A DNA stretch of 64,000 nucleotides from an uncultured delta proteobacterium. GTDB taxonomy: Bacteria > Myxococcota_A > Polyangia > Polyangiales > Polyangiaceae. The DNA is taken from the NCBI GenBank assembly GCA_963782055.1, contig CAWAIF010000003.1, positions 6,688,001 through 6,752,000 of the forward strand, given 5' to 3'. Made by a program: the position numbers and the translations under genes. Under the pieces are notes generated by a model that searched no databases, was not told the DNA's origin, and saw nothing but the letters and a program-made list of their open reading frames with translations. Every line of letters starts with the position of its first letter. Within the stretch, counting starts at the first letter, position 1. This document shows positions 33,247 to 52,852 of this stretch, in pieces.

Positions 33247-33262
33247 TGCACGTTGAATGCCA
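33247..33262 (-). promoter_or_regulatory. Candidate sigma54 promoter for the hemerythrin/DUF4149 genes
   Basis: TGGCAT-TCAAC-GTGCA on the minus strand, just upstream of ATG 33231. Confidence 0.5.
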
Positions 33263-33469
33263 CCCCGCATGCGGTGCGCCTCCCGCGCGCAGCGTTGGCG
33301 CTCGGCGCAAAGGCGTCGTGTCCGCGCATGCATTGCAGCGCAGGCACGCAGCTCCGTGCGGGCAGGACGTGAACGCAGTGCGCTGGCTATGCGATCCGTC
33401 AGGGCGCCCCACGCGACCTGCACCTACGGTCCTCGTGAGCGCCGCGACGGGCGGCGCGCGGAGGTCGAG

Positions 33470-35455: not shown

Positions 35456-35462
35456 GGCGGCC

Positions 35463-36188
35463 ATGTCCCTCGCGATCGACCTGAAGGATGGCCGCCGGCA
35501 TCTGGCGACGGCGCCGGCGCGGGGGGAGCCGGTGCCGCGGTGGCGGCGCTGGCTCGTCGTTGGGCTGATGAGCACCGCCACGGGGATGTTCGCCGGCTCC
35601 TTCTTCCTGCCCTGGTGGCACTTCACCCTCTACGCGCCCCAGTACCCCCACGGCCTGCGGATGCAGATGTCGCTCACTGGCGTCGGAGGCGACGTCGGTG
35701 AGATCGACGAGCTGAATCACTACATCGGCATGGCGCGCCTGGAGAACGTCGCCACCACGGAGGAGCACTACGCCGCGTACGGCATCGCCCTGGTGGCGCT
35801 GGTGATCCTCGTCCTGACGCTCGTGCTCGGACGCAAGCTGGGCAAGCTCATCCTGGCGCCTGCGCTCGCCTTCCCCGCGGGTTTCCTGGCGGACTCCTTC
35901 TACTGGCTCTACCACTGCGGCCACGGGCTCGACCCGCACGCGCCCATCCACCTGCCGGCCTTCACCCCGCAGATGTTCGGCAACGGGCAGATCGGGCAGT
36001 TCTTGACCTTCGCGGCGCCGTCGTCGGGGTTCTGGCTGGCGTGCGCCGGGGCGGCGATCGTCGCCCTGGGCGTGATCATCCGGCAGCGGAGCGTGTGCGC
36101 CCACTGCACGCAGCGCGGCACCTGCGGCGCGGTGTGCCGGAGCGCCTTCATCCTGCGGGAAGAGCAGCCGGACGAGGTCGCGCCGTGA
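35463..36188 (+). CDS. nosB: NosB-like membrane protein of clade II nos clusters
   Basis: P.W...L.APQYP.GL, EI..LNHYIGM, WLY..GH.LDP.AP; located directly after nosZ. Confidence 0.8.
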   Translation: MSLAIDLKDGRRHLATAPARGEPVPRWRRWLVVGLMSTATGMFAGSFFLPWWHFTLYAPQYPHGLRMQMSLTGVGGDVGEIDELNHYIGMARLENVATTEEHYAAYGIALVALVILVLTLVLGRKLGKLILAPALAFPAGFLADSFYWLYHCGHGLDPHAPIHLPAFTPQMFGNGQIGQFLTFAAPSSGFWLACAGAAIVALGVIIRQRSVCAHCTQRGTCGAVCRSAFILREEQPDEVAP

Positions 36189-37531
36189 ACGCGCGGGCGC
36201 GCGCGTGGGTCCGGCGCGGCGCCGTCGCCGTCGCCCTGCTCGCCGTGGCCGGCGCCGTCGCGCACGCAGGCCCGGCGGCGGACGACCTGCGCGGCCCGCC
36301 GCCGCCGCCGGACCACACCGGGACCTACCGGCAGACCCCGCCGCCGGGCGCGGCCATCGCGCACGACGAGGCCGGCCTCGCGCGCCTGCTCGCCGACCCG
36401 CGCGGTCCCGCCGACGTCTGGCTCGAGGGCCGCGTCTACCGCGGCGACCTCGTCGTCGCCCGGCGCGTCGCGCTGCACGGGACGGGCGACACCGTGCTCG
36501 ACGGCAGCGGTCGCGGCACCGTCGTCACCGTCACTGCCGACGGCGTCCTCCTCGACGACCTGACCGTCCGCCACTCCGGCCGGCGCTTCACCACCGAGGA
36601 CTCCGGCGTGAAGGTCCACGCGAAGGGCGTGCGGGTGAGCCACCTGCTCGTGGACGACGTGCTCTTCGGTGTGGAGCTCTCCCCCTGCCCCGCGTGCGTG
36701 ATCGAGCACACCCGCGTGCTCGGTCAGGACGGCGCGACCGAGCTGCGCGGCGACGGCATCAAGCTCTGGGAGGCCAACGACGCCGTCGTGCGCGACTGCA
36801 TCGTCGACCACGGGCGCGATCTCGTCGTCTGGTACTCGCGACGCGCGCTGCTCGACGGCGTCGTCGTACGGCACGGCCGGTACGGCGTGCACTTCATGTA
36901 CTCGCACGACGCGGTCATCCAGAACAGCCGGCTGGAGGACAACGTGGTCGGCATCTTCGTCATGTACAGCCAGCGGCTGAAGGCCCACCACGACGTGATG
37001 GCGGGCGCGCGCGGCCCGGCCGGGATGGGCATCGGCTTCAAGGAGAGCGACGGCGTCTCGGTGGAGGACGACTGGATCGTCGCCAACACGACCGGCATCT
37101 ACCTGGACCGGACGCCGCGCGACCCGGAGAAGCCGGTCACCTTCGACCACAACGTGCTCGCCCTCAACGACGTCGCCGTGCGCTTCCTGAGCGCGCAGCA
37201 GGGCCTCACCTTCACCGAGAACGACTTCCACCAGAACGTCCAGGTGGCGGTGGTGGAGGGAGGAGGCGACGCGCTCGGCACCATCTTCGCCGGCAACCAC
37301 TGGACCGACTACGAGGGCTACGACCTGGACGGCGACGGCATCGGGGACGTGCCCTTCGAGCTCCGGGAGGTGGACGGGGGACTCACCGACGCGCACCCGC
37401 AGGTGCGCTTCTTCCAGGGCACCGGCGCGCTCGACCTGTTCGACGCCGTGGCGCGCGCCGTGCCCGTCCTCTCGAGCCGCTCCGTGCTCGTCGACAAGAC
37501 GCCGTCGATGACGGCACCGAGGCCGCGATGA
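36185..37531 (+). CDS. nosD: Nitrous-oxide reductase maturation protein NosD
   Basis: RGDGI.LW, RYGVHFMYS, GN.W.DY.GYDLDGDGIGDVP. Confidence 0.92.
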   Translation: MNARARAWVRRGAVAVALLAVAGAVAHAGPAADDLRGPPPPPDHTGTYRQTPPPGAAIAHDEAGLARLLADPRGPADVWLEGRVYRGDLVVARRVALHGTGDTVLDGSGRGTVVTVTADGVLLDDLTVRHSGRRFTTEDSGVKVHAKGVRVSHLLVDDVLFGVELSPCPACVIEHTRVLGQDGATELRGDGIKLWEANDAVVRDCIVDHGRDLVVWYSRRALLDGVVVRHGRYGVHFMYSHDAVIQNSRLEDNVVGIFVMYSQRLKAHHDVMAGARGPAGMGIGFKESDGVSVEDDWIVANTTGIYLDRTPRDPEKPVTFDHNVLALNDVAVRFLSAQQGLTFTENDFHQNVQVAVVEGGGDALGTIFAGNHWTDYEGYDLDGDGIGDVPFELREVDGGLTDAHPQVRFFQGTGALDLFDAVARAVPVLSSRSVLVDKTPSMTAPRPR

Positions 37532-38442
37532 TCCAGGTATCCCACGTGTCCAAGTCCTTCGGTCCGGTCCTCGCGCTGGACGACGTGTCGCTCGCCATCG
37601 GGCGGGGAGAGCGCGTCGCCTTCGTCGGCTCCAACGGGTCCGGGAAGACGACCCTGCTCCGGTCCATCCTCGGCCTCTTGCGGGTCGAGGGCCGCGTCGC
37701 CGTCGGCGGCGTGGACGTCGCCGCCTCGCCGGAGATCGCCCTGCGCTCGGTGGCGTACATCCCGCAGATCGCGCCGCCGCTGGAGGCGCCGGTCGGCGAG
37801 GTCATCAGGGCGCACGCCGCCCTGCGGCGGATCGACGCCGGGGCCGTCGCCGAGCGCGCGGGGCCGCTCGGCCTCTCGGTCGCCGCGGTGGAGCGCACGC
37901 GTTTCCGCGATCTGTCCGGCGGCATGAAGCAGAAGCTCCTCGCGGCGATGGCCCTCGCCACCGGCGCCGAGGTGCTGGTGTGCGACGAGCCCACCGCCAA
38001 CCTGGACGCCGCGGCGCGCGCCGCCTTCTTCGAGCAGGTCGACGAGCGCGGCCGGGACGGCATCGTGGTGCTCTGCTCCCACCGGATCGAGGAGGTCCGG
38101 CAGCTCGTCGACCGCGTGGTGGAGATGAAGGAGGGCCGCGTCGCGCGGGACGCGTCGCTCCACGAGCTGCTCGCGGAGCTGCGCAGCTTCCGGGTGGAGG
38201 TGGCCCTCGGGCGCACGCGGGGGGAGGCGGAGACCTTCCTGCGCGCCAACGGCTTCGAGTCCGCGGGCCCCGGACGCCTGGGCGCCCTCTTCTCGCAATC
38301 GGCGAAGGTGGACGTGGTCGCCAGGCTCCTGCGCCTCCACCAGGACGACATCGCCGATCTGTCGGTGTACCAGGTCGACGACCTCGCGCTCGGCGAGCGC
38401 GCCGGGAGCGAGGGCCGTCCGCGACTGAAGGTGGTGTCATGA
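37528..38442 (+). CDS. nosF: ABC ATPase NosF
   Basis: GSNGSGKTT, LSGGMKQK, DEPTANLD; ATGA coupling. Confidence 0.88.
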   Translation: MIQVSHVSKSFGPVLALDDVSLAIGRGERVAFVGSNGSGKTTLLRSILGLLRVEGRVAVGGVDVAASPEIALRSVAYIPQIAPPLEAPVGEVIRAHAALRRIDAGAVAERAGPLGLSVAAVERTRFRDLSGGMKQKLLAAMALATGAEVLVCDEPTANLDAAARAAFFEQVDERGRDGIVVLCSHRIEEVRQLVDRVVEMKEGRVARDASLHELLAELRSFRVEVALGRTRGEAETFLRANGFESAGPGRLGALFSQSAKVDVVARLLRLHQDDIADLSVYQVDDLALGERAGSEGRPRLKVVS

Positions 38443-38852
38443 GCGCCGGCCGGCTCGCGCTGGCGCTCGCGCTGGTGGCTGCGCTTCTCGGCGCGTGCGA
38501 GGACCTGTCGCGCCCGGTCGACCCCGTGTGGGGCAAGCAGGCGTGCGCCCACTGCGCCATGCTCGTGTCCGACCCGCGCTTCGCCGCCGAGCTCACGACG
38601 ACCGCCGGCGACCGCCTCTTCTTCGACGACCCGGGCTGCATGGCCGCCTACGTGGACGAGCACCGCACGCCCGTCCGCCGGATGTGGGTCCACGACGTCT
38701 CCGGGGCCTGGATCGACGCGCAGGGCGCGCAGTTCAAGGCGGGGGCGTCGTCTCCCATGGACTACGGGTTCGCGACCGACCCTCAGGGCAAGGACGACTG
38801 GAGCGCGGTGGAGCGGGCGGCGACGAGCCGCATGGCGGGAGGTGAACGATGA
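38439..38852 (+). CDS. nosL: NosL-like copper chaperone lipoprotein
   Basis: Lipobox LLGAC, CAHCAM, FDDPGCM, SPM.YG. Confidence 0.85.
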   Translation: MSAGRLALALALVAALLGACEDLSRPVDPVWGKQACAHCAMLVSDPRFAAELTTTAGDRLFFDDPGCMAAYVDEHRTPVRRMWVHDVSGAWIDAQGAQFKAGASSPMDYGFATDPQGKDDWSAVERAATSRMAGGER

Positions 38853-39700
38853 ATGCCGCATCGACGGGTGGAAGCGCGACGCGCGCCTTCTTTCGACTGG
38901 AGATCGCCGACGCGCTCCGGTCGCGGTGGGTGGTCTTCACGGCCACGGTGTACGTGGTGGTGTTCGGCTCCTTCGTGTGGCTGGGCCTGCGGGAGTCCTC
39001 CGTCCTCGGGTTCACCGGCCTCTCGCGCGTGGTGCTCAACGTGTCCAACGCGGTGGTGATCGTGCTGCCGCTGGTCGCCCTCGTCGCCACCAGCCAGACG
39101 GTGGTTCGCGCCCGGACGACGGGCTTCTTCGAGCTGCTCCTGGCGCAGCCGTGCAGGCGAACCGACTGGTTCCGCGCGGTCGTCGCGTCGCGGCTGACCG
39201 TCATCATCGCGCCGCTCGTGCTCCTCTTGCTGGCGACGCTGGTGGCGGGCGCGTCCGCGCACGAGACCACCCTCGCGCCGCTGGTGGCGCGGAGCGTGCT
39301 CTGCATCGTCTCGCTGGTGTGGGCCTTCGTCGGCATCGGCCTGTGGCTTTCGTCGGTAGCGCGCACGTCGGAGCGCGCGACGGTCTACGCGCTCGTCACG
39401 TGGCTCGCGGCGAGCGCCCTGCACGATTTCGCGCTCATCGGCCTGCTGCTGAAGACGCGCCTCGCCCCGGCCGCCGTGTTCACCCTCGCCGCGCTGAACC
39501 CGGTCGAGTCGGCACGGCTGGCCATCCTGGGCGGCATCGACCCGGACCTCTCGGTGCTCGGGCCCGTCGGGTTCTGGCTCGCGAACACGCTCGGACCTCG
39601 CTGGACGCTGGTGATCGGGGTGGGCTGGCCGCTGCTGCTCGGGAGCGTGTGCGCCTGGCTCGCCGCGCGACGACTCGAGCGGTCGGACCTCGCGGGCTGA
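38849..39700 (+). CDS. nosY: ABC permease NosY
   Basis: ELLLAQP..R, LNP....R, multiple TM helices; operon position. Confidence 0.85.
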   Translation: MNAASTGGSATRAFFRLEIADALRSRWVVFTATVYVVVFGSFVWLGLRESSVLGFTGLSRVVLNVSNAVVIVLPLVALVATSQTVVRARTTGFFELLLAQPCRRTDWFRAVVASRLTVIIAPLVLLLLATLVAGASAHETTLAPLVARSVLCIVSLVWAFVGIGLWLSSVARTSERATVYALVTWLAASALHDFALIGLLLKTRLAPAAVFTLAALNPVESARLAILGGIDPDLSVLGPVGFWLANTLGPRWTLVIGVGWPLLLGSVCAWLAARRLERSDLAG

Positions 39701-39771
39701 CATCCGTCAGTGTCGGACGAGGGCGGCGACGCCACACTCTTCGACAGGAACGACAACGGAGGAACAGACTC

Positions 39772-40215
39772 ATGAATACAGCGGTCCGATACGTCGTCGC
39801 GTGCGTCGCAGCCGCCGCGCTGGTCGCCTGCAGTAAGTCCGAAGCCAGCTCGACTGGCTCCGGCGCAGGCGCCGTGGACACCTCCGGCACGGCCGCCGGC
39901 CTTCCGGCGGACACGGCGACCGCGGCCGCCGACCCCGCGGCGGCGCAGACGCTCTTCAACGCCCGCTGCGTCCCCTGCCACGGCTCGACGGGCCACGGCG
40001 ACGGCCCGGGCGCAGTGGCTCTCAACCCCAAGCCGCGCAACTACACCGACGTCGCCTGGCAGAACAAGGTCTCCGACGAGGACATCAAGAAGACCATCCT
40101 CTACGGCGGCGCCGCGGTCGGGAAGAGCCCCAACATGCCCGCCAACCCCGACCTGGACGGCAAGCCCGAGCTCGACGGCCTGGTGAAGATCGTCCGCGGC
40201 TTCAAGGGCAAGTGA
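39772..40215 (+). CDS. Monoheme c-type cytochrome lipoprotein
   Basis: GGAGG RBS, lipobox LVAC, CVPCH, G.GDGP...LNPKPR, distal MP. Confidence 0.9.
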   Translation: MNTAVRYVVACVAAAALVACSKSEASSTGSGAGAVDTSGTAAGLPADTATAAADPAAAQTLFNARCVPCHGSTGHGDGPGAVALNPKPRNYTDVAWQNKVSDEDIKKTILYGGAAVGKSPNMPANPDLDGKPELDGLVKIVRGFKGK

Positions 40216-40219
40216 GGCG

Positions 40220-40927
40220 CTAGCCGGCGTCGACCGACAGGGCCTCGGGCTGGTGGAGGATGAACCCCTCCCCCGTCGTGGAGAGCAGCCCCTCCTTCTG
40301 CCACCGGCTCATCATGCGGATGGTCGTCTCGATCGTCGCGCCGACCAGGCACGAGAGCTCCGCGCGCGAGAGGACCACCGGGATGATCACCGAGCCGTCC
40401 TCCAGCTCGTCGCCGAAGCGCTCAGCCAGGTGGCCGAGCAGGGTGGTGAGGCGCTTCTCCACCGGCCCTGCGGTCATGATGCGGATCTTCTCGCGCAGGG
40501 CGGTGGAGTGGTCGACCAGCGACCGGTTGATGGCGAGCGAGAGTTTGACGTCGCGCGACATCGCCGCGAGGACCGGCGTCTTCTCCACGCAGAGGAGCTC
40601 CACGACCTCGCTCGCCGCGAGGGCGTCGGCCGGGTAGGTCCCGTGCGAGATCACGGCGACGTCGCCCACGCTCTCGCGCGGGCCGAAGAGGCCCATGATG
40701 GCCGCGTCGCCCTCGGGCCGCGGCTGGCAGATCTTCACCAGGCCGGTGGCGATGATGGTGATGCAGGTCGCGGGCTGTCCGGCGCGCCAGATGACGCCCC
40801 CGCGCTCGAAGCGGCGGCGCACCGTGCTCCGCGCGAGCTCGGCGAGCAGCGACTCGTCCAGCCCTCCTAGGAGCCGAGACGCCCGGAGGCTGGCGTCGAT
40901 TCCAACTGGAGCTGGCGGTGCGTTCAT
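40220..40927 (-). CDS. Crp/Fnr family regulator (DNR/HcpR-like; no FNR Cys cluster)
   Basis: cNMP-like domain (G.VK, G..A), LSR.EL...VG.T.ETTIR HTH. Confidence 0.9.
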   Translation of the reverse strand: MNAPPAPVGIDASLRASRLLGGLDESLLAELARSTVRRRFERGGVIWRAGQPATCITIIATGLVKICQPRPEGDAAIMGLFGPRESVGDVAVISHGTYPADALAASEVVELLCVEKTPVLAAMSRDVKLSLAINRSLVDHSTALREKIRIMTAGPVEKRLTTLLGHLAERFGDELEDGSVIIPVVLSRAELSCLVGATIETTIRMMSRWQKEGLLSTTGEGFILHQPEALSVDAG

Positions 40928-40972
40928 GGCGAGCACGGTGCTAGCGCAAAGGGAACGCGGGCGCCATGGGCT

Positions 40973-41551
40973 TCAGCCGGCTGAGTCGTGGGGGATCACG
41001 CCGTCGAGGGCCGCGAAGACCTCCGGCGTGCGGCGCGCCCGCATCACGGCGAAGAGGCGCCTCCGCTCGGCGACGGGGATCTCCACCTCGACCACGGGAA
41101 AGAGGTCCTGCTCTTCCAGCGCAAGGTGGATGTCCAGCACCGCACCCAGGCGGCGCGAGGCGGCCAGCAGGTCGAGAGCTGCGATGCCCTCCGGCGCCTC
41201 CTGCAGGCGCTCCCACTCCGGGAGGAGCTCCTCGAGGACCTCGTGGACGAGCACGTGCTGGGCCGTCATGCGCTCCAGGGCCTCGGCCACCTGGGCACCA
41301 GCGCCCGTCGAGAGGAGGGCCGGAGCGAGGGACTGCTCCTCGTCCGCTTCGTGCAGGGGGAGCGCGACGCGGAAGTAGCGTACGAGCTGCGTGCTCGCGT
41401 CCCGCACCGGCTCCGCCCCCAGCCCCGACCCCGCGGCGAGGCTCAGCGCCAGGCCGGAGAAGTGACGCAGGCGGGCGTGGCACGCCATGAGGAGGTCGAC
41501 CGGCTCTTCGGTCGTCGGGGGACGGGGTCCGGTGCGTATGTGGTGGAGCAT
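40973..41551 (-). CDS. Hemerythrin-domain protein
   Basis: L.ACH.R, YF..A.PLH..DEE..L.P, QH, H..LEE..LFP. Confidence 0.85.
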   Translation of the reverse strand: MLHHIRTGPRPPTTEEPVDLLMACHARLRHFSGLALSLAAGSGLGAEPVRDASTQLVRYFRVALPLHEADEEQSLAPALLSTGAGAQVAEALERMTAQHVLVHEVLEELLPEWERLQEAPEGIAALDLLAASRRLGAVLDIHLALEEQDLFPVVEVEIPVAERRRLFAVMRARRTPEVFAALDGVIPHDSAG

Positions 41552-41607
41552 GGACTGTTCTGTGTGCCGGGCCGGCGTTCCCGTCCATGCCAAATGTCAT
41601 GAGCGCA

Positions 41608-42606
<999 letters not shown>

Positions 42607-42665
42607 GGCGTTCCAGTTTGGAACATAGGTCCGGCGCGTCCCGCGGACAAGCCGGCGGTGTGCGC

Positions 42666-42681
42666 TGGTACGGGGGCTGCA
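42666..42681 (+). promoter_or_regulatory. Candidate sigma54 promoter of the ric operon
   Basis: TGGTAC-GGGGG-CTGCA, upstream of the GGAGG RBS and ATG 42704, divergent from the activator. Confidence 0.6.
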
Positions 42682-42703
42682 GATGCCACGAGCGGAGGCA
42701 AGC

Positions 42704-43405
42704 ATGCCCGTCATCGACCGAACCGCCAGTGTCGCCCAGATCGCGCTCGATCATCCGCCGTGCGCGATCGTCTTCCGCAACCACCGCATCGACTTCTGCT
42801 GCCGGGGCGGGCTCACCGTCGAGGAGGCGTGCGCGGGCAAGGCCATCGACACCGAGGCCGTCTTCGTCGAGCTCGACCGGGCCGTCCAGGAGCGTGCCGC
42901 GCCGGCCTTCGACCCGCGAGGGCTCGCGACGCCCGAGCTCGTCGCGCACATCGTCGGGCGCCACCACGCGTACCTGCGCAAGGCCTTGCCCTTCGCCGAG
43001 CAGGTCGCGCGCAAGGTGGGCCGCGTGCACGGAGAGCACAACCCGAAGCTCCCGGCCCTGGCAGACCTCGTCGCCGAGCTGCGTGAGACGCTGGAGCCTC
43101 ACCTGGACCAGGAGGAGCGCGCGCTCTTCCCGGCGCTCACCGGCCAGGCGCCGGACCCGGCGCGCGTCGCCGGCGAGCTGCGCGCGATGCACGACGACCA
43201 CCTGCGCGTGGGCGAGATGCTCACCTGCATGCGCACGCTCGCGGACGACTACGCGTGTCCCGACTGGGCGTGCGGGAGCTACCGGGCGCTGATGAGCGAG
43301 CTCGAGGCCATCGAGCTGGACACGCTGCGGCACGTCCACCTCGAGAACCACGTGCTCATGCCTCGCTTCTCCACTCACACAGGCGAGGTCAACGCCAATG
43401 CCTAG
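42704..43405 (+). CDS. ric: Repair-of-iron-centres di-iron protein (RIC/YtfE/ScdA)
   Basis: IDFCC.G, HI...HH.YL, H...EE..LFP, H.HLEN.VL.P. Confidence 0.93.
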
Positions 43406-44549
43406 GTCGAAGGTCGCGGTCCTCAGGTGCAAGCCGGCGACGGTCCTCGCCGACATCGAGCGGCTCTGCGAGCTCGCGGGGATGAAGGAGGCCCTCGCGC
43501 CCGGCAACACGACCATCCTCAAGGACAACATCTCCTGGCACTACCCCTTCCCCGGCGCGAACACGACGCCCTGGCAGATGGAGGGGACCATCCTCGCGCT
43601 GAGGAACGCCGGGCTCGGCGACGTGACGTGCGTGCAGAACAAGACGGTGGTGACCAACGCCTTCAAGGGCGAGGACCTCAACCACTACGTGCCGCTCTTC
43701 GAGAAGCACGGCGTGCCGGTGCGCTACAACTTCAAGGAGACCGACATGACGTGGGTCGAGCACCGGCCCAGGGCGAAGATGCACGTCCTCGACCGCGTCT
43801 TCCCGGAGGGGATCCGCGTGCCCGACTACTTCTTCGGCAAGAACGTGGTGCACCTCCCGACGGTGAAGTGTCACATCTACACGACGACCACTGGCGCCAT
43901 GAAGAACGCCTTCGGCGGCCTGCTCGCGACCAAGCGCCACTACACCCACTCCTGGATCCATCGCACGCTGGTGGACCTGCTCGCCATCCAGAAGGAGATC
44001 CACACCGGCATCTTCGCGGTGATGGACGGCACGACGTGCGGCAACGGCCCGGGCCCGCGCACCATGATCCCGGTGGTGAAGGACTTCATGCTCGCGAGCG
44101 CCGACCAGGTCGCCATCGACGCCGTGGCCGCGAAGATGATGGGCTTCGACCCGATGAAGCTCGAGTACATCAAGGTCGCGCACGACGACGGGCTCGGCGT
44201 CGGCGACCCGCGCGACATCGAGATCGTCGGGGACGACGTGAGCGGCGAGAGCTGGGGATTCAGCGTCGGCGACAACCTGGCGAGCCACGCGGGCGACCTG
44301 CTGTGGTTCGGGCCGCTCAAGCGCATCCAGAAGCTCTTCTTCCACACGCCGCTCGTGAACGTCTTCATCTTCGGCAGCGAGGCCTACCACGACTACTACC
44401 GCTGGCCGCTGAAGGACCGGCGGACGTTCGAGACGTGGGCGCGCCAGACGAAGTGGGGCCGGCTGTTCCAGTCGTACGCCGGCGGGCCCACCTCGGGCGA
44501 GGCTGGCGTGCGCCTTGCACCGCAGGGAGACGCTGGAGGTGACGCATGA
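43398..44549 (+). CDS. DUF362 domain protein
   Basis: LK.N, NT.P, LPT.KCH..T..TGAMKN.FG, DG....G.GP, D.VA.D. Confidence 0.85.
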   Translation: MPRSKVAVLRCKPATVLADIERLCELAGMKEALAPGNTTILKDNISWHYPFPGANTTPWQMEGTILALRNAGLGDVTCVQNKTVVTNAFKGEDLNHYVPLFEKHGVPVRYNFKETDMTWVEHRPRAKMHVLDRVFPEGIRVPDYFFGKNVVHLPTVKCHIYTTTTGAMKNAFGGLLATKRHYTHSWIHRTLVDLLAIQKEIHTGIFAVMDGTTCGNGPGPRTMIPVVKDFMLASADQVAIDAVAAKMMGFDPMKLEYIKVAHDDGLGVGDPRDIEIVGDDVSGESWGFSVGDNLASHAGDLLWFGPLKRIQKLFFHTPLVNVFIFGSEAYHDYYRWPLKDRRTFETWARQTKWGRLFQSYAGGPTSGEAGVRLAPQGDAGGDA

Positions 44550-44941
44550 TCCGGCTCAAGCGCGCGTACGAACCGGCCGACCAGGGCGACGGGCACCGCG
44601 TCCTCGTGGAGCGGCTGTGGCCGCGCGGCCTGCGCAAGGAGCAGGCGCACTTTGACGAGTGGCTCAAGGGGATCGCCCCGAGCGACGCGCTCCGCAAGTG
44701 GTTCCATCAAGACGCGGACAGGTGGTCGGAGTTCCGGCGGCGCTACGTGCGCGAGCTCCACGCGGAGCCGGCGAAGCCGGTGCTGGAGCAACTCGCCCGC
44801 CGCGCGAAGCGGGAGCCGGTCACCCTCGTCTACGGGGCGCACGACACCGAGCACAACAGCGCCGTGGTCCTGGCAAAGGAGCTCGAGCGCCGCGGGGCAC
44901 GGGTGATGCATCGCCCCCACGCACAGCAGGAGGCACCATGA
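44546..44941 (+). CDS. DUF488 (YeaO-like) protein
   Basis: KRAYEP....DG.RVLV.RLWPRG..K, APS..LRKWF, TLVY.A.D..HN.A. Confidence 0.9.
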   Translation: MIRLKRAYEPADQGDGHRVLVERLWPRGLRKEQAHFDEWLKGIAPSDALRKWFHQDADRWSEFRRRYVRELHAEPAKPVLEQLARRAKREPVTLVYGAHDTEHNSAVVLAKELERRGARVMHRPHAQQEAP

Positions 44942-45156: not shown

Positions 45157-45381
45157 TCACCGCCGCATGCGCCTGTCGAAGCCGCGCACATAGAGCAGCA
45201 GCGCTCCGCCGAGGGCGAAGAGCACGACCGATGCGCCGGCCCCGGCGACGGCCACCCCGGTGTCGCCTCTCAGCACGGCGTCCAGCGAGGCCGCGAGCAG
45301 CCAGAGCTGGACGACGACCAGCGTGGCGACGAGGGCGAAGATCGCGGTGAAGAGCTGCTGACCCTGCGTGCGGTAGCTCAT
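45157..45381 (-). CDS. Small two-TM membrane protein (DUF6755-like)
   Basis: LVVVQLWLL.A......G....A..AS; last gene of the molybdoenzyme operon. Confidence 0.7.
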   Translation of the reverse strand: MSYRTQGQQLFTAIFALVATLVVVQLWLLAASLDAVLRGDTGVAVAGAGASVVLFALGGALLLYVRGFDRRMRR

Positions 45382-45384
45382 CGG

Positions 45385-45888
45385 TCAGCTCGCGATGCCG
45401 GTGGCGAAGACGTCGTCGCCACGCACGTCCAGCATCACCTGAGGCAGCGGCCGCTCCGGAGGGCCCTCGATGGGTCGCGCGCCGCCGGGCCCGCACTCGA
45501 ACAGGCCCTCGTGGCACGGGCAGAAGAGGTGGTCGTCCGACGCCCGGTAGACGACCGCGCAGGAGAGGTGCGTGCACACGGCAGAGAAGGCGACGAGGAC
45601 GCCCTCGCGCGTGCGCACCAGGATGCACGGGTCCTTGTCGGTCGGGTAGCGGAAGAGGAGCGACTCGGCCGGCGCGAGCGCGGAGGCCGAGGCGATGCGC
45701 TTCTCGCCGTAGCTCTGGTGCGTGCGGAGCCGCCCGGCGATCGCGACGGCCACGTTGGCGCCCGCGACGAGCGCCGAGCCGAGCACCAGGAACTTGGTGA
45801 GCTCGCGCCGCGTGACGTAGTGGTCCTGGTCCCACTCGACGGGGAAGTCCCCGCGCCATCGGGGCAACGACTTCTTCTCGTCAGCCAT
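45385..45888 (-). CDS. Rieske [2Fe-2S] protein with a twin-Arg/TM N-terminus
   Basis: CTHLSC and CPCH boxes, GPP.RPL; TRRE followed by a hydrophobic helix. Confidence 0.92.
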
Positions 45889-46519
45889 GGCTCTCCTCCA
45901 GCAGCGCGGCGACGTCGGTCGGGTCGGGCGCGAGGGCGATGGGCTCGCCGGTCTTCTTCTTGAGCCCCAGGAGCTTCACCTCCACGCGCTCGGTCCGGGC
46001 CGGCACCATCACGTGCACCTTGGTGCGCACCGTCTCGTCGCCGAAGCGCCACTCGTTGACGGCCACGCCCGTGCGTGTCCGCTCCATCTCCTCGCGCGTC
46101 ATGAAGCTCAGCGCCTGCGACGGGCACACGGTCGCGCACATCGGGCGCTTGCCCACGCTGGTGCGGTCGTAGCAGTAGTCGCACTTCATCATCTGGTCGA
46201 AGTCGGCCACGTACTTCGGCACGCCGAAGGGGCACGACAGCACGCAGTTGGAGCAGCCGATGCAGCGCGGCTTGAGCGACGACTGCGTCACGAGATCGGG
46301 CGTCTGCTTGATGGCGTCGGCGGGGCAGACGCGCGCGCAGATGGGGTCCTCGCAGTGCATGCACACCTGCGGCGCCGTCTGGACGGTGTCCCTGCGGTCG
46401 ATGGTCTCCAGGTGGATCATGGACCGGCCGCGGTGGGTGTCGCACTCCTCGCACGCCTGCACGCAGGCCTTGCAGCCGATGCAGCGCGAGTAGTCGATGA
46501 AGAAGACCAGCTCGCTCAT
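45881..46519 (-). CDS. 4x[4Fe-4S] electron-transfer subunit (DmsB/NrfC-like)
   Basis: [38 protein letters not shown]...C..VC. Confidence 0.92.
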
Positions 46520-48737
46520 CCGATCCCCCCGCCTGCGGCTCGAGGTGCGCGTCGGCGTCGTCGGGCGCTTCCACGCGCGTGACGCGGACCGCGCAGATCT
46601 TGAACTCGGGGATCTTCGACACCGGGTCGATCGCCCGGATGGTGCAGTTGTTGGCCGCGCGCTCGAGCGGCCAGTGGTAGGGGATGAAGACGTGGTCGGG
46701 GCGGATCGTCTTGACAATCATCGCGCGCACCGTCGCCACGCCACGCCGGCTCTCCACCCGCACGAAGTCGCCCTCTCCGACGCCCAGGTCGGCCGCCATG
46801 CGCGGGTGCATCTCGCAGTAGGCGGAGGGGTTCTGGCTCACCAGCGCCCCGATGCGCCGCGTCTGGGTGCCCGACAGGTACTGCGACACGACGCGCCCCG
46901 TCGTCAGCGTGATGGGGTACTCCGCGTCGGGCTCCTCCGCCGCCGGGCGCCACTCCACCGGCTGGAAGTGGGCGCGGCCGTCGGGGTGCGCGAACCTGGC
47001 GCCCTCGTAGAGGCGCGGCGTGCCCGGGTGATCGAGCGAGGGGCAAGGCCAGAAGACGCCCATCTGCGCGTCGATCTTCTCGTAGGTGATGCCGTAGTAG
47101 TCCGACGCGCCGCCCCTGGACGCGACCCGCAGCTCCTCGAAGATCGCCCGTGGCGAGTCGAACCCGAACTTGTCGGCGACGCCCAGACGGGCGGCCAGAT
47201 CGCAGATGATCTTCCAGTCCACCCGAGCGTTGCCGGGCGGGTCGACGGCCTTCTGGTGGTGGACGACGCGCCCCTCGACGGTCGTCGTGGTGCCCTCGTC
47301 CTCTTCCATGAGCGAGCCGGGCAGGACCACGTCGGCGTGCCGGAGGGTCTCGGAGAGGAAGAAATCGATGCCCGCGAAGTACTCGAGCTTCTCCAGCGCC
47401 TCGCGGACGAAGTTCTGGTCAGGCAGCGAGACCATCGGGTTGAAGCAGATGAGCAGCAGACCCTTGATACGGCCGTCGTGGATCGCCTCGAGCAGCGGGA
47501 CGGCGCTCAGGCCCTTGTGAGGGATGGACTCCTCCGGCACGCCCCACACATCGGCGATGTAGCGGCGGTGCTCGGGGTTGTCGATGTCACGCTGCCCGGG
47601 GAGCTGCTCCGCCTTCTGCCCCTGCTCGCGCGCGCCCTGCCCGTTGCCCTGGCCGGTGATCATCGCGTAGCCGCAACCCTCGCGGCCGATGCGACCGGTG
47701 GCGACGACGAGGTTGAGCGCGGCCATGCAGTTGTCCACGCCCTTGGTGTGGTGCTCGATGCCGCGCGCGTGCAGGAGGAAGCTCGTCTTCGCCGGCCCCC
47801 AGAGCTCGGCGGCGCGCACGATCATCGACGCCGGCACGCCGGCGATCTTCGCCGAGTACTCGGGCGTGTACTTCTTCACGACCTCCTCCACCTGGTCGAA
47901 GCCGGTGGTGTGCTCCCGGATGAAGTCGCGATCGACCCAGCCGCGCTCGAGCATCACGTGCAGCATGCCGTTGAACACGGCGATGTCGCCGCCGGACCGG
48001 ACCGGAATGTACAGGTCCACGGTGCGCGCGATGGGCGTCATGCGCGGGTCGAGCACGATGATCCTGGCGCCCTTCTCCCGCGCGGACCACAGGTACTCGG
48101 TGGTGATGGGCGCGCACTCGGCGACGTTGGCGCCGGCGATCAGGATCACCTCCGCCTCGCGGATGTCGCTCCAGGGGTTGGCCGCGCGGTCGATGCCGAG
48201 GACCTTCTTCGAGGCGGCGGCCGCCGAGACCATGCAGAGGCGGCCGTTGTAGTCGATGTTGGCGGTGCGCACGGCGACGCGCGCGAACTTGCCCATCAGG
48301 TACGCCTTCTCGTTGGTGAGGGAGGCGCCGGTCAGGATGGCGAAGCTGTCCGGGCCGTGCTTCTCCTGGATGGACCGGATCGCGTTCGCGGTGCGGTCGA
48401 GCGCGGTCTCCCATTCCAGGGGACGGAAGCCGACGCCCTCCACGCGCTCGAGTGGCTCGAGCAGACGGTCGGGGTGATCGCCCTGCATGTAGCGCTTCAC
48501 GCCCTTCGGGCACAGCTTCCCACGGTTGAAGGGGAACTCCTCCCACGGCTCGAACCCGACGACCTTCTCGTGCTTGACCTTGAGCTGGATGCCGCACTGT
48601 TGCCCGCAGAAGCAGCAGTGGGTCTTCACCAGGCGGTCGGCGTCTCCCACCGGCGTCCACCCACCGGCAGGGACCGTGTGCAGGTGCGGGCCCCAGCGAT
48701 CGACGAGCTCGGCAACGGGTACGGGCAGCTTGGCCAT
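46516..48737 (-). CDS. Cytoplasmic bis-MGD molybdopterin oxidoreductase of the Nas/Nap/Fdh family (nitrate-reductase-like); expected stop is out of frame by 1 nt
   Basis: HCCFCGQQC...LCPKG Fe-S motif, [34 protein letters not shown]; no Tat signal; as sequenced the frame runs on to 45435. Confidence 0.88.
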
Positions 48738-48741
48738 GGTG

Positions 48742-49797
48742 TCATCTCCTCGCCGCGGCGCGGGAGTCGCGCCACAGCCGGTCCTGCGTGACGGCCAGCG
48801 ACTTGCGCCGGCACGCCGGGCAGACGTCCTGGTAGTGCCCCGCGGCGGTCGCGTAGGCGATGCCGAGGGACGCCTGGACGTTCTTCAGGTCGGCGACGTG
48901 AAGGGACGTCGCGAAGGGTTCGCCGCAGCTCGCGCAGGCGGCCGGGCCTCGGGCGGCGCCGGCTTCCTTGTAGAACTTGATGCTGAGCTGCGCCGGACGC
49001 TGGAAGACGTGAAAGAACTTGCCGAAGGGCAGGTAGAGCAGCGTGAAGATCACCGTCACGGCGTGGAGCTCGGAGAGGAAGCCGTAGTGCAGCCCCTTCA
49101 TCAGGTGCGTGGAGACGGTGAGGAAGATCCCGGTCATCGAGACCGCGAACAGGAGGAGCAGGGGCAAGAGGTCGTTCGCGAACTGCTGTACCGCGAGCGC
49201 CCCCCGGTCACGGCCGCGCCGGTAGAGCGCGATGGCGATGCCGGCCAGGACCATCGCCGCGGCGACGTCGAGCACGTTGAAGACCAGCGGCGCGACGGGG
49301 CTGGAGAGCGGGAAGGAGAAGACCTTCACGCCGAAGACGAAGGCCTGGTAGACGTCTGGCGCACCCGGGGCGCTCTCGAAGCGGATCCACCCCCACGACA
49401 GCGGGAAGGTCACCGCCGCGGCGAGCAGGCAGCCCCACGCGATGAACAGGTGCGCGAACCAGCGCGCGTGCGAGCGCCGCTCGATGAAGCGCTGCGCGAC
49501 GATGTTGTCCCAGAAGAGGCCCGGCAGCTTCGCGAGGTTGCGCGGCAGCCGCGACGGCGAGAGGAAGGTCTGCCATCCGCGCCGCCAGTACATGCGCGTC
49601 GGCGGGCGGCTCAGCCACATCGCATACCGGTAGCCCAGGCCGAACGCGCAGAACACCGACGCGCCGGCGTAGGCGACGAGCGCCGCGTCGAAGTCGCGCA
49701 GCTCACGGCTGCCGAAGTAGATACCGACCACGACGACGGCGGCGGCGATCAGCCCCCCCATCCACGCGCCGCGGGCGCTCGTTTCCCGCTCGCTCAT
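48742..49797 (-). CDS. Polytopic membrane subunit, NarI/DsrM-like cytochrome b fold, with C-terminal CxxC...CxxC
   Basis: RW..H..I.WG, LH...V, PFGKFFH potential heme ligands; CASC/CPAC; ATGA coupling. Confidence 0.72.
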
Positions 49798-50438
49798 GGC
49801 GGTCCCGACCTGGGCGTGGAGTCGAGGACGGTGCGGCGAGCCCAGAGGGGGTAGTCGAGCCCGGCGAGACGGTTGATCGCGATGGCCTGCAGCGTGAGGA
49901 CCGCGACCGCCACCTCGATCAGGAGGAGGTGTAGGGGCCGCGTGACGATCCCCAGCGACACGATCAGCGTGGTCGCGCCCGCGGGCGGGTGCGCAGCCTT
50001 GAACAGGATCATCAGGGCCCCGGTCGCGGCGAGGGACAGCGCAGCAGCCAGGACACGTGGGCCATCGACGCCGGTGGCGATGGCCGGCGGCGCGTGCGAG
50101 AGCCCGCACAGGAGAAGCGCGCCGTAGCCGCAGAGAATGCCGATGGCGTGCCCGAGCATCGTGTGGCGCGGGCTCGCCGTTGGGGAGGTGGGCGTGAAGA
50201 AGAAGAGAAACGCGGTGGGACCGAGCGACGGGAACACGAAGGGGGTGCCGCTCACCATCGCCACGGCTGCCAGAAGGGCGATGGAGACGAACCCGTTCAC
50301 GAACATGAAGGCGGCCCACACCGGTCGCTCCGGGAAGCGGCCGAGCAGGCGCGTGAGCCGGAGCCGCTGGACGAGGCCGCGCGTGACCTGCGGATGCAGC
50401 AGGTCCAGCTCTGAGGTGCGACGTTCGGTCTCCGGCAT
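49794..50438 (-). CDS. HPP family membrane protein
   Basis: FPSLGPTA.L, A.PR....GH, HPPAGAT.L. Confidence 0.9.
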   Translation of the reverse strand: MPETERRTSELDLLHPQVTRGLVQRLRLTRLLGRFPERPVWAAFMFVNGFVSIALLAAVAMVSGTPFVFPSLGPTAFLFFFTPTSPTASPRHTMLGHAIGILCGYGALLLCGLSHAPPAIATGVDGPRVLAAALSLAATGALMILFKAAHPPAGATTLIVSLGIVTRPLHLLLIEVAVAVLTLQAIAINRLAGLDYPLWARRTVLDSTPRSGPP

Positions 50439-50472
50439 TTCCGCGCTCGAGCCCGCGTGGTTGCGAGCCACG

Positions 50473-50495
50473 GTATGATATATAGGTTCCCATAC
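50473..50495. promoter_or_regulatory. AT-rich inverted repeat between divergent HPP and marR genes, candidate MarR operator/promoter
   Basis: GTATG-ATATATAGGTTCC-CATAC in a 58-bp intergenic gap. Confidence 0.5.
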
Positions 50496-50496
50496 A

Positions 50497-51054
50497 ATGG
50501 CTACCCATGGAACTGCGCGCGCGTCGCCCGCGCGCGTTCGCCGCCCCAACCCCCGCGGCGAGGACGCACGCGACCCGGCGCTCCGCACGGTCCTCGACGG
50601 CTTCCGGCACGTGGTCCAGCAGCTCCGGGCGTACTCGGCGCGTGCGGAGGGGGAGACGGGCGTCACCGGGGCGCAGGTGTTCGTCCTCTACGCCCTGGCG
50701 GGCGCGCCCGCGCTCTCACTCAACGAGCTGGCGCGGCGGACGGCGACGCACCAGAGCTCGGTCTCCGTGGTGGCGCAGCGCTGCGAGGCCAAGGGGCTCG
50801 TCGAGCGCCGCCGCTCCGCCGAGGACGGCCGCCGCGTCGAGCTGCGGCTCACGGCGCGGGGCCGCGCCCTGCTGCGACGCATCCAGGAGCCGCCGCAGGC
50901 GCGCCTGCTGCGCGGCGTCGCCTCGCTCCCCACCGGCGAGCTCGCCGTGCTGGCGTCGGCGATGCGACGCGTGACCGCAGCTCTGGAGGACACCAGCGCC
51001 ACGCCGACCATGTTCTTCGAACCCACGACCAGCAAACATGACCACGACACCTGA
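50497..51054 (+). CDS. MarR family transcriptional regulator
   Basis: G.T.AQ..VL, S..ELA, S.VS, GLV.R..S.ED.R...L.LT..G. Confidence 0.9.
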   Translation: MATHGTARASPARVRRPNPRGEDARDPALRTVLDGFRHVVQQLRAYSARAEGETGVTGAQVFVLYALAGAPALSLNELARRTATHQSSVSVVAQRCEAKGLVERRRSAEDGRRVELRLTARGRALLRRIQEPPQARLLRGVASLPTGELAVLASAMRRVTAALEDTSATPTMFFEPTTSKHDHDT

Positions 51055-52852
51055 CCGTGCGGGGAGCGAGCTCGCGGGCGGCCGCCGCCTGGTGATCATC
51101 ACGCTCGCGGCGATCGGCGTGGCGGTCCTCGCCGCGCTCACGGCGCGCGTGCTCACGCGCGCCATCTACTTCGTCACCAACCTCGCCTTCTACCAGCGCG
51201 CCTCCTTCGCCCAGAGCGGGCCGGCGGGGCACCACCTCGGCGCCTGGGTCGTCCTGGTCCCGGTGGCCGGCGCTGTCGTCGTGGGCCTCATGGCCCGGTT
51301 CGGCTCCGCGGCCATCCGCGGACACGGCATCCCCGAATCGATGGAGTGCGTGCTCCGGGGGGAGAGTCGCATCCCGGCGCGCCTGACCTTGCTCAAGCCG
51401 CTGTCCGCCGCGATCTCGATCGGCACCGGTGGCCCGTTCGGCGCGGAGGGCCCCATCATCGCCACGGGCAGCGCGCTGGGCTCGCTCTTCGGTCAACTCG
51501 CCGCCGTCACCAACGCGGAGCGCAAGACGCTGCTGGCGGCCGGGGCGGCGGCCGGCATGGCGGCGACCTTCGGCACGCCCATCGCCGCCGTCTTCATCGC
51601 GGTCGAGCTGCTGCTCTTCGAGCTCCGGCCTCGCTCCCTCGTCCCCGTGACGCTCGCGAGCGTCACCGCGGCGGCGGTGCGCGCGTGGATGCTGGGCGTG
51701 GACCCCGTCTTCCGCGTCCCCGACCTCGCCCCACCCACACCCGGGGCGCTCGCCTGCTACGCGGTCGTGGGTGCGCTGACCGGCGTCGCGGCGGTCGGCG
51801 TGACGCGCGCGGTCTACTCCGTCGAGGAGTGGTTCGAGAAGCTCCCGGTCCACTGGATGTGGTGGCCGGCCATCGGCGCCGTCGCCGTCGGCGTCATCGG
51901 CTACGTCGAGCCGCACACCCTGGGTGTGGGCTACGACAACATCGAGCACGCCCTCGCCGGCTCGCTCACGCTCCGCGCGATCGCGGTCCTGTGCGGGCTG
52001 AAGCTCGTGTCCTGGGCGATCTCCCTCGGCAGCGGCACCTCCGGCGGGACCCTGGCGCCGCTGATGACCGTGGGGGCCGGCGTCGGCACGGTGGCCGGCG
52101 CGGCGATGCAGCTCGTCCTCCCCCACGCGCACGTCGACCTGCGGATGGCGGCGCTCGTCGGGATGGCGTCGATGTTCGCCGGAGCCTCCCGCGCCGCCCT
52201 CACCTCGGCGATCTTCGCCTTCGAGGCCACCCACCAGATCCAGGGCGTGCTCCCCGTCCTCGCCGGCTGCCTGCTCGCGCTACTCGTGTCGCTGGCGCTC
52301 ATGCGCCACACGATCATGACCGAGAAGATCGCCAAGCGAGGTGTACGCGTCGTCGGCGAGTACCGGGCGGACCCGCTGGAGGAGGCGGCGGCCACCGACC
52401 ACGCGTCGCGTCCGGTCACGCTCCGTGATCACGCCTCGCTCGGCGAGGTGCGCGCGTTCCTGCGCTCTGGCGCGGACGGCTCCCGCCACGCGACCTACCC
52501 GGTGCTCGACGCGGCGGGCGCGCTCGCCGGTCTGCTCTCGCGCCACGAGGTCACGGAGTCCGACGCGAGCGACACGGCGCCCGTCGGCGCCTTGCTGTCC
52601 GGGCTGCCCGCGACATGTCCGGCGACAGCCTCGCTCGCCGAGGCCGCCCACCTGCTCACCGCCCACGAAGCCCCCTGTCTCTGCGTGGTGGATGCGTCGG
52701 ACGCCCGCGCGCTCGTGGGCGTGCTCACCCGCGGCGACGTCCTGCGCGCGCACCGGCGGCGCGTCGAGGAGGGCGAGCTGCTGGGCGAAGCGAGCCTGCT
52801 GCGGAGCCTGCGCCGCCAGATCGCGGGAGCGTCGGGCCGCGCCGGTCCCTGA
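51038..52852 (+). CDS. ClC-family anion channel/antiporter with CBS domains
   Basis: GHGIPE, G.EGP gating Glu, GAAAG.AA.F..P, GVGY, SGG..AP; C-terminal CBS pair. Confidence 0.92.
   Translation: MTTTPDRAGSELAGGRRLVIITLAAIGVAVLAALTARVLTRAIYFVTNLAFYQRASFAQSGPAGHHLGAWVVLVPVAGAVVVGLMARFGSAAIRGHGIPESMECVLRGESRIPARLTLLKPLSAAISIGTGGPFGAEGPIIATGSALGSLFGQLAAVTNAERKTLLAAGAAAGMAATFGTPIAAVFIAVELLLFELRPRSLVPVTLASVTAAAVRAWMLGVDPVFRVPDLAPPTPGALACYAVVGALTGVAAVGVTRAVYSVEEWFEKLPVHWMWWPAIGAVAVGVIGYVEPHTLGVGYDNIEHALAGSLTLRAIAVLCGLKLVSWAISLGSGTSGGTLAPLMTVGAGVGTVAGAAMQLVLPHAHVDLRMAALVGMASMFAGASRAALTSAIFAFEATHQIQGVLPVLAGCLLALLVSLALMRHTIMTEKIAKRGVRVVGEYRADPLEEAAATDHASRPVTLRDHASLGEVRAFLRSGADGSRHATYPVLDAAGALAGLLSRHEVTESDASDTAPVGALLSGLPATCPATASLAEAAHLLTAHEAPCLCVVDASDARALVGVLTRGDVLRAHRRRVEEGELLGEASLLRSLRRQIAGASGRAGP

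Follow-up and report, generated by a model that had tools for sequence, protein, structure and literature searches.

What does a molybdoenzyme of the assimilatory nitrate reductase type do when it is encoded among genes for a NarI-like membrane protein, an iron–sulfur (FeS) subunit and a Rieske protein? The question is raised by six minus-strand genes at positions 45157–50438 of a 64 000-nucleotide stretch of contig CAWAIF010000003.1 (the window), which belongs to assembly GCA_963782055.1 of an uncultured member of the Polyangiaceae. Neighbouring genes overlap or are separated by gaps of no more than 8 nt, which bears out the six coupled genes described in an earlier note on the window, and the GC content of the operon equals that of its flanks. 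We consider it fairly likely that this operon specifies a dissimilatory quinol:nitrate oxidoreductase that is bound to the membrane and faces the cytoplasm, and that would serve to respire or to balance redox state when oxygen is low and nitrosative stress prevails. The genes, in their order at the locus, together with one lesion, are as follows.

49794..50438, minus strand: HPP-family membrane protein, 214 aa (PF04982, E-value 1e-24), with four helices predicted from hydropathy
48742..49797, minus strand: NarI-family cytochrome b anchor, 351 aa, with His116, His245 and His263 and a C-terminal CxxC-x34-CxxC
46516..48737, minus strand: molybdenum (Mo) bis-pyranopterin guanine dinucleotide (Mo-bisPGD) catalytic subunit of the Gram-positive NasC lineage, ∼740 aa, with an N-terminal [4Fe-4S] and Cys168-Met169
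46525..46530, minus strand: run of six G (G6), one base short compared with the junction in relatives, with loss of the stop of the catalytic gene
45881..46519, minus strand: four-cluster [4Fe-4S] subunit of the DmsB/FdnH/HycB type, 212 aa
45385..45888, minus strand: Rieske [2Fe-2S] protein, 167 aa, with a twin-Arg motif and one helix
45157..45381, minus strand: DUF6755 protein, 74 aa (PF20540, E-value 1e-12), with two predicted helices

Homologues of the anchor numbered 6472 among 8000 scored candidates, and the GTDB counts per locus given here refer to the best 80 of at least 589 confirmed stretches, selected on the anchor. These loci span at least seven phyla (Acidobacteriota, Myxococcota, Planctomycetota, Chloroflexota, Gemmatimonadota, Armatimonadota and Abditibacteriota). 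The anchor gene lies 5′ of the Mo gene in all 80, with the FeS gene present in 67 and the Rieske gene in 64 (most misses fall at contig ends) and DUF6755 found in 58 by clustering; a survey of operon conservation, which the earlier note had put forward as a check, thus confirms a conserved operon in this set. The order anchor–Mo–FeS–Rieske–DUF6755 also occurs on a Deinococcus plasmid, the portion from anchor to Rieske in Brevibacillus, and the anchor in Neobacillus and Mesobacillus. Distribution is patchy, the anchor being found in none of six genomes of the same genus, 3 of 24 of the same family and 41 of 301 sampled Acidobacteriota genomes. The literature searched, which lay outside subscription journals and supplements, contained no description of the entire operon, and DUF6755 returned 0 papers; the accessible text of PMC12769810 and of bioRxiv 2024.05.17.594689 gives no account of the operon. 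In the text available to us, Heylen & Keltjens (PMC3475470) report a 729-aa nasC of Bacillus bataviensis, unlinked to nirBD and followed by iron–sulfur and Rieske genes, which they call an alternative assimilatory system; judged by order and size, which fit the Brevibacillus locus, this set is probably part of the same operon.

The catalytic subunit carries RLCM at residues 166–169, and its best NCBIfam match was the NasC model NF047855 at 812 bits, short of the cut-off of 1100, whilst the NarG model TIGR01580 gave 57 bits (cut-off 1084) and identity to NarG was ∼21 %. The motifs YNGR(L/F)CM, ARGxEH and TGQxNGQGxRE are common to the operon Mo subunits and to nirB-linked NasC (comparison proteins from Paenibacillus, Skermanella, actinobacteria and Deinococcus), the window copy reading YNGRLCM and ARGIEH. 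Across 70 aligned operon Mo subunits, Cys168 is kept in 69 and Met at 169 in all, whilst the His that follows the Mo ligand in formate dehydrogenases and the Arg of RGQNN are missing from every one (position 361 is Thr, Val or Ala). None of the 70 bears a twin-arginine translocation (Tat) motif, and no hydrophobic segment was found in the Mo or FeS subunit of the window. The Cys-Met, non-formate active site and the missing Tat signal, both read from the window in the earlier note, thus recur across the alignment, save for Cys168 in one member.

In two quick maximum-likelihood trees, with few references that were named from annotation and nirB linkage and that include neither B. subtilis NasC nor cyanobacterial NarB, the operon Mo subunits formed one side of a branch, with Shimodaira–Hasegawa-like approximate likelihood-ratio test (SH-aLRT) values of 86 (34 rows: two from plasmids and 32 out of 69 from GTDB and the window) and 96 (11 rows). 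This branch sits inside the NasC group (SH-aLRT 100) and apart from NapA, FdhF, proteobacterial NasA and AioA. The earlier note had held that its view of a new enzyme would be undermined by clustering with assimilatory NasC combined with matching activity independent of the membrane and Rieske subunits; the first half of this, clustering with nirB-linked Gram-positive NasC, is what we found. The operon Mo subunits are like Gram-positive and actinobacterial NasC (NF047855) of nirBD operons in active-site motifs, length, tree position and absence of a Tat signal, but they form a clade of their own with membrane redox partners instead of NirB, NirD or NasB, and their hosts need no siroheme nitrite reductase, whereas the NasC type is soluble and has neither an anchor nor a four-cluster subunit. 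As such, the novelty rests in the redox partners and not in the active site, and kinship with NasC points to nitrate reduction by the Mo subunit. Descent of AioA from within the operon clade was unsupported, AioA falling outside it in a quick tree with two AioA rows. At three loci of Skermanella and actinobacteria (L087, L094 and L095), a NasC-type gene is followed by a small gene of ∼115 aa and then by nirB.

A single-sequence search of the Protein Data Bank with the anchor returned nothing, nor did Foldseek produce any match at E ≤ 0.001; its likeness to NarI emerged from profile and VIA searches. The anchor profile matches E. coli NarI (E-value 8e-4; hhalign probability 94 %) and sets His245 and His263 opposite NarI His187 and His205. 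An AlphaFold2 model (predicted local distance difference test score, pLDDT, 96) aligned with EtfD (9OJN) at Z 11.2 and a root mean square deviation (rmsd) of 3.9 over 219 residues, and with NarI at Z 10.3 and 5.6 over 185 residues; both Z scores are below the 13 advised for helical bundles, above that of the next row (7.4) and in accord with the sequence result. Amongst 48 representatives, His116 is kept in 46, His245 in 47 and His263 in 41, whilst none of the 48 has His at the equivalent of NarI His66 (anchor position 126), the residue there being Ala, Ser, Gly or Val. The NarI homology claimed in the earlier note for a His-containing anchor with a CxxC..CxxC tail hence stands, with three haem His and not four. 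According to the text seen of a preprint (10.64898/2026.08.18.745454), three-His NarI-family domains bind haem b(P) and, at the distal site, either a stacked twin haem or none. The anchor resembles those of EMO/EtfD and HdrE in fold and in the +18 spacing of its last two His; by spacing only, Thr130 (in 38 of 48), which stands 14 residues past His116 as Ala101/Ser does past His87 (same preprint), suggestively takes the place of a Ser in HdrE for which binding of the second distal haem is predicted. Its partners, however, are a Mo enzyme and a Rieske protein and not electron-transfer flavoprotein or Hdr-type Fe-S domains.

Following the last helix, on what is the cytoplasmic side in NarI, the anchor tail CxxC-x34-CxxC overlays HycF 112–165 (Z 6.0, rmsd 1.8, 52 residues). 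The Cys quartet of HycF has the same spacing, holds one metal ion and lies at the FdhF/HycB interface (PMC9474812, in the part available), which suggests by analogy that the tail may be a cytoplasmic docking site. Formate hydrogenlyase thus shares with the operon an FdhF-family Mo subunit, a four-cluster subunit and the CxxC-x34-CxxC metal site, but the operon includes no hydrogenase, has the tail fused to cytochrome b and lacks the Sec/Cys-His and Arg of formate dehydrogenase. The database label 'MFS transporter' (major facilitator superfamily) for the stand-alone anchor was rejected, as no Pfam family matches, and most likely spreads from NarK–anchor fusions.

The remaining partners named in the earlier note, a DmsB-like subunit, a twin-Arg Rieske protein and a small transmembrane protein, were all verified. 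The FeS subunit is of the four-[4Fe-4S] type and has neither signal nor membrane helix; twin-Arg motifs occur in 40 of 41 Rieske proteins (TRRELTKF in the window) compared with 2 of 41 FeS subunits. DUF6755, with an invariant QxWL, is likely a small membrane subunit. High-potential Rieske proteins carry Ser and Tyr at two sites of the cluster-binding region; the operon proteins, which have a conserved N-terminal WxxDFP peptide and a CTHLSC/CPCHxGxF pair with the disulfide cysteines kept, show Gly and Phe there in 41 of 41, so that by the Ser/Tyr rule they would be of low potential.

The solved sequences closest to the Rieske protein are AioB and then bc-type Rieske proteins, which brings in an Aio-like topology, in which the Tat-exported Rieske protein would bind the Mo and FeS subunits and take them across into the periplasm, so that the enzyme would face outward. 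AioB carries AioA in this way, the closest plasmid relatives of the Rieske protein outside the operon are likewise AioB, and both systems pair a Tat-bearing Rieske protein with a Tat-less Mo subunit; AioA is, moreover, reported in the accessible text of PMC7331816 to derive from the NasC/NasA lineage. Nevertheless, we hold this topology to be very improbable. In 52 of 56 loci a transporter gene adjoins the operon or is fused to it, the cysteine tail lies on the cytoplasmic side of NarI like the HycF part facing FdhF and HycB, the Rieske protein is without the insertion and C-terminal tail of AioB, and AioA lies outside the operon clade. Additionally, the operon Mo subunit keeps a Cys ligand and a four-Cys cluster motif, whereas AioA has no protein ligand to Mo, and the operon adds an FeS subunit, an anchor and a transporter.

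The transporter slot bears on the substrate. In the 56 loci with full flanks (24 of 80 were left out as cut short) it held NarK in 36, SLAC1/TDT in 12, HPP in 4 and nothing in 4, and never two of these; in 12 of 80 loci NarK and the anchor form a single in-frame fusion. SLAC1-family channels are permeable to nitrate. NarK is of the nas-cluster type, 48 of 49 matches being nearer to a nas-cluster transporter than to E. coli NarK. HPP, a family in which the earlier note counted cyanobacterial and plastid nitrite transporters, is indeed present in the window and recurs in a distant branch (L115), but is only a minority occupant; an HPP protein, AtNITR2;1, transports nitrite according to the part seen of a review (PMC4137279). 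Taken with the active-site motifs, the slot makes nitrate or nitrite the likely substrate, in line with the nitrate (or other oxyanion) foreseen in the earlier note.

We found no nirB or nirD adjacent to the operon in the 80 loci (one weak FAD-domain match), no match to E. coli NarJ in these loci or the host genome, and none to E. coli NapB or NapD in the loci, so that the absence of nirBD, napB and narJ partners noted for the window extends to these loci. Nap is further set apart by its Tat signal, absent from all 70 operon Mo subunits, and by the separate branch of NapA. To describe the genomic setting we used 54 carrier genomes (50 that were picked from the 80 loci for their long contigs, and four others), of which 2 have narG, 2 napA, 12 nirB (10 over cut-off), 16 nrfA and 10 a nirK-like gene (3 over cut-off); the siroheme NIR_SIR domain was not found in 17 of the 50 operon genomes. 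In Acidobacteriota, nrfA occurs in 26 of 41 carriers vs 57 of 260 non-carriers, narG in 12 of 41 vs 14 of 260 (26 of 301 overall), nirB in 2 of 41 vs 2 of 260 (four over cut-off in 301) and nosZ in 1 of 41 vs 23 of 260. A rule that the operon replaces Nar was rejected, as it holds in the 54-genome set but fails with the 12 Acidobacteriota carriers that have narG. Twelve stretches, fetched largely for their nrfA or narG links, had nrfH–nrfA directly 5′ of the anchor in two, nrfA 3′ of the operon in three, always on the same strand, and narGHJI adjacent in four. In two of them (L111:6271-19804 and L112:590-14247), narGHJI precedes genes that resemble those of alternative complex III (pentahaem c, Mo/FeS fusion, membrane subunits) and converges on the operon, itself headed by an Rrf2 gene (labels from weak BLAST matches and motif counts); in L110:12715-13515 and L113:13391-14233, a dihaem c-type cytochrome gene lies directly 5′ of narG.

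Genes for RIC, NnrS, Crp/Fnr, Rrf2, hemerythrin or globin lie near 35 of 80 loci, and RIC near 24 of 94 related loci. A TGTGA-N6-TCACA box, an HcpR/CRP-type consensus (PMC1274295, as far as available), was found upstream in 9 of 79 loci against a shuffled mean of 0.4, several of the nine being close kin; there was no GlnR/TnrA box in the 79 upstream regions, and FNR, NsrR and sigma54 boxes were not enriched. These nitric oxide (NO)-stress neighbours, together with the co-location with narGHJI, are what favours a different chemistry at the same site, with nitrite or another oxyanion as substrate (nitrite oxidation as detoxification, nitrite to NO, or chlorate) and a tie to NO stress. It would also suit this host, whose HPP is of the nitrite type and in which neither NarK nor a nitrite reductase was found, and a NapA relative is described as reducing chlorate and perchlorate in the accessible text of PMC12769810. 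We regard it as rather improbable: the active-site motifs equal those of nirB-linked NasC residue for residue, a CPCHxGxF Rieske protein, if of low potential, would be a poor acceptor for nitrite oxidation (∼+430 mV), and the nrfHA linkage points to nitrite as the product.

The NasC lineage of the Mo subunit and the nas-cluster type of NarK could instead indicate an alternative assimilatory nitrate reductase fed by the quinol pool and not by NirB or NasB, as Heylen & Keltjens (PMC3475470, text seen in part) read the probable Bacillus form. To this we give little credence, given that no siroheme nitrite reductase was found in the host or in 17 of 50 carriers, that nirB is adjacent in 0 of 80 loci and present in only 2 of 41 Acidobacteriota carriers, that no nitrogen-limitation boxes lie upstream, and that the Deinococcus plasmid with the operon holds a second Nas-like match (H9). 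The host assembly, 97 % complete in three contigs, has no NIR_SIR (siroheme) domain, and at that completeness nitrate assimilation via a known route is unlikely. Neither narG nor any other trace of Nar, Nap, NarK, NrfA, NirK, NirS or NO reductase was found in the host genome, which does have clade II nosZ, two haem-copper oxidases, MoaA and TatC. The host enzyme, if active, would likely stop at nitrite, with HPP as the likely port. A second, unrelated molybdopterin oxidoreductase of 715 aa (G000:C3:2701225-2703372), 26 % identical to the operon Mo subunit, has no obvious partners.

The copy in the window has a defect that the earlier note overlooked. The Mo reading frame has no stop at the expected end and stays open for 1100 codons, to 45435, whereas 23 of 24 close relatives have a stop within a few codons of that point, where the Mo gene overlaps the start of the FeS gene; by this comparison the G6 run at 46525–46530 is one base short. 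Contigs from two public DNA runs do not reach across the G-run. Likely, the missing stop is an error in the three-contig assembly, as the lesion sits in a homopolymer run, similar splits occur in loci of other metagenome-assembled genomes (MAGs; L006, L046, L063 and L074), no cofactor residue is lost, the other five genes are undamaged, and the host has moaA and tatC. A genuine frameshift allele, inactive or impaired, is the unlikely alternative, and one independent of the function of the family; it would agree with the lack of a stop after codon 740, the absence of the anchor gene from all six same-genus genomes and the lack of an obvious nitrate importer in the host.

Most likely, then, the operon works like NarGHI. 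With NarGHI and NarK of E. coli it shares a Mo subunit, a four-cluster subunit, a NarI-family cytochrome b, a nitrate/nitrite transporter and a predicted cytoplasmic active site; it differs in a Cys-ligated Mo subunit of 740 aa and NasC type compared with ∼1230 aa for NarG, in having no narJ, in an anchor with an extra N-terminal helix, a Cys4 tail and three His where NarI has four haem His (His56/66/187/205), and in the added Rieske and DUF6755 proteins. Under this proposal, a Gram-positive NasC-type catalytic subunit would have become attached to a new membrane arm. (Mena)quinol would be oxidized at the NarI-family anchor, and electrons would pass via haem b(P) (His116/His263), the four-cluster subunit and the N-terminal [4Fe-4S] to Mo, reducing nitrate to nitrite in the cytoplasm. 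The HycF-like tail may help to dock the soluble subunits, whilst the Tat-exported Rieske protein and DUF6755 would sit over the outer face close to His245, at a distal haem site that appears to lack part of the canonical bis-His ligation. NarK, SLAC1/TDT or HPP would move nitrate or nitrite, and nitrite would be exported or, where these are present, passed to NrfHA or NirK. The direct basis is gene content, homology, motifs, phylogeny and genomic context, from which we infer that the subunits form a complex, as well as its haem content, topology, substrate, direction and role in the cell. As a whole system, the operon belongs to none of Nar, Nap, Nas, FdhF or Aio, in keeping with the exclusion of the first three by the earlier note. 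Its gene content also contradicts the statement, in the accessible text of PMC7331816, that nowhere in the Fdh-H/Nas/Aio/Nap clade is a four-cluster subunit combined with a membrane anchor.

Several observations weigh against this proposal. In its active site and its type of NarK the operon matches assimilatory systems, some siroheme enzyme occurs in 33 of 50 operon genomes and a NirB match in 12 of 54, and, in the host itself, no NarK or nitrite/NO reductase was found that would account for nitrate entry and the fate of nitrite. The TGTGA-N6-TCACA box is absent from the window. In the 12 Acidobacteriota carriers with narG the two systems are often no more than 25 kb apart, and narG beside the operon looks redundant if both only reduce nitrate. 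Co-occurrence p-values are inflated by kinship, and most of the genomes are MAGs without completeness figures. Furthermore, a simple NarI-like path has no need of a Rieske protein. In a bolder version of the proposal, a low-potential periplasmic Rieske protein and a single-His (possibly twin) distal haem could form a Qo-like site splitting the electrons of quinol, of which one would cross the membrane to nitrate in the cytoplasm and the other would leave outward for cytochrome c and NrfA or an oxidase; alternatively, electrons from cytochrome c could be fed inward by the Rieske protein. This would be a fourth prokaryotic nitrate reductase architecture, with its own coupling; we regard it as doubtful.

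The surroundings of the operon in the window comprise two further groups of genes.

50497..52852, plus strand: divergent MarR regulator and CLC-CBS channel (GHGIP motif), context only and not part of the conserved operon
40220..43405: NO-stress context, with Crp/Fnr at 40220–40936, hemerythrin at 40973–41593 and RIC/YtfE at 42683–43405

MarR is found near 1 of 94 related loci and CLC near 3. The divergent starts of HPP and MarR are 58 bp apart, and the region (50439–50520) contains an imperfect palindrome, GTATG-N13-CATAC, which is possibly a MarR operator. The CLC-CBS channel (51038–52852), which also adjoins the operon in L005, L006 and L037, has GHGIP at the selectivity motif, where GSGIP is usual, and is a candidate route of nitrate entry. 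Between RIC and the operon end lie DUF362 and DUF488 genes (43398–44941), found near 0 and 2 of 94 loci, respectively, whilst an ORF read by eye as a sigma54-type activator (41608–42714) is divergent from RIC and upstream of the hemerythrin and Crp/Fnr genes. A clade II nos cluster at 33257–40215 contains nosZ, a 241-aa membrane gene, nosD, an ABC ATPase, a NosL-like ORF, nosY and a small c-type cytochrome; as no nitrite or NO reductase was found in the genome, the host is a non-denitrifying N2O reducer. The earlier note had placed the operon beside this cluster: clade II nosZ is present, but lies ∼5 kb off on the other strand, and the link is incidental. As only 2 of 94 related loci have nosZ nearby, and only one of the 41 Acidobacteriota carriers has it at all, we rejected a functional connection, and the adjacency reflects local clustering of low-oxygen genes.

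The operon is widespread and apparently unstudied, and direct tests are feasible as cultured hosts exist (Edaphobacter, Polyangium, Herpetosiphon, Deinococcus and Mesobacillus). Databases hide it by naming the anchor an MFS transporter, and surveys assign NasC-like genes to nitrogen assimilation; Wells et al. (PMC7331816; PMC10100899), in the text available, class NasC/NasA as assimilatory. In the Acidobacteriota sample, nevertheless, the anchor gene (41 of 301) is commoner than narG (26 of 301) and far commoner than nirB (four). Should the Qo-like arrangement be true, it would be as common as NarG in this phylum and would supply the nitrate-to-nitrite step missing in many nrfA-only genomes of dissimilatory nitrate reduction to ammonium (DNRA). 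The operon probably lets many soil bacteria use nitrate as an electron acceptor, and if it is dissimilatory, their nitrate reduction and DNRA capacity has been under-counted.

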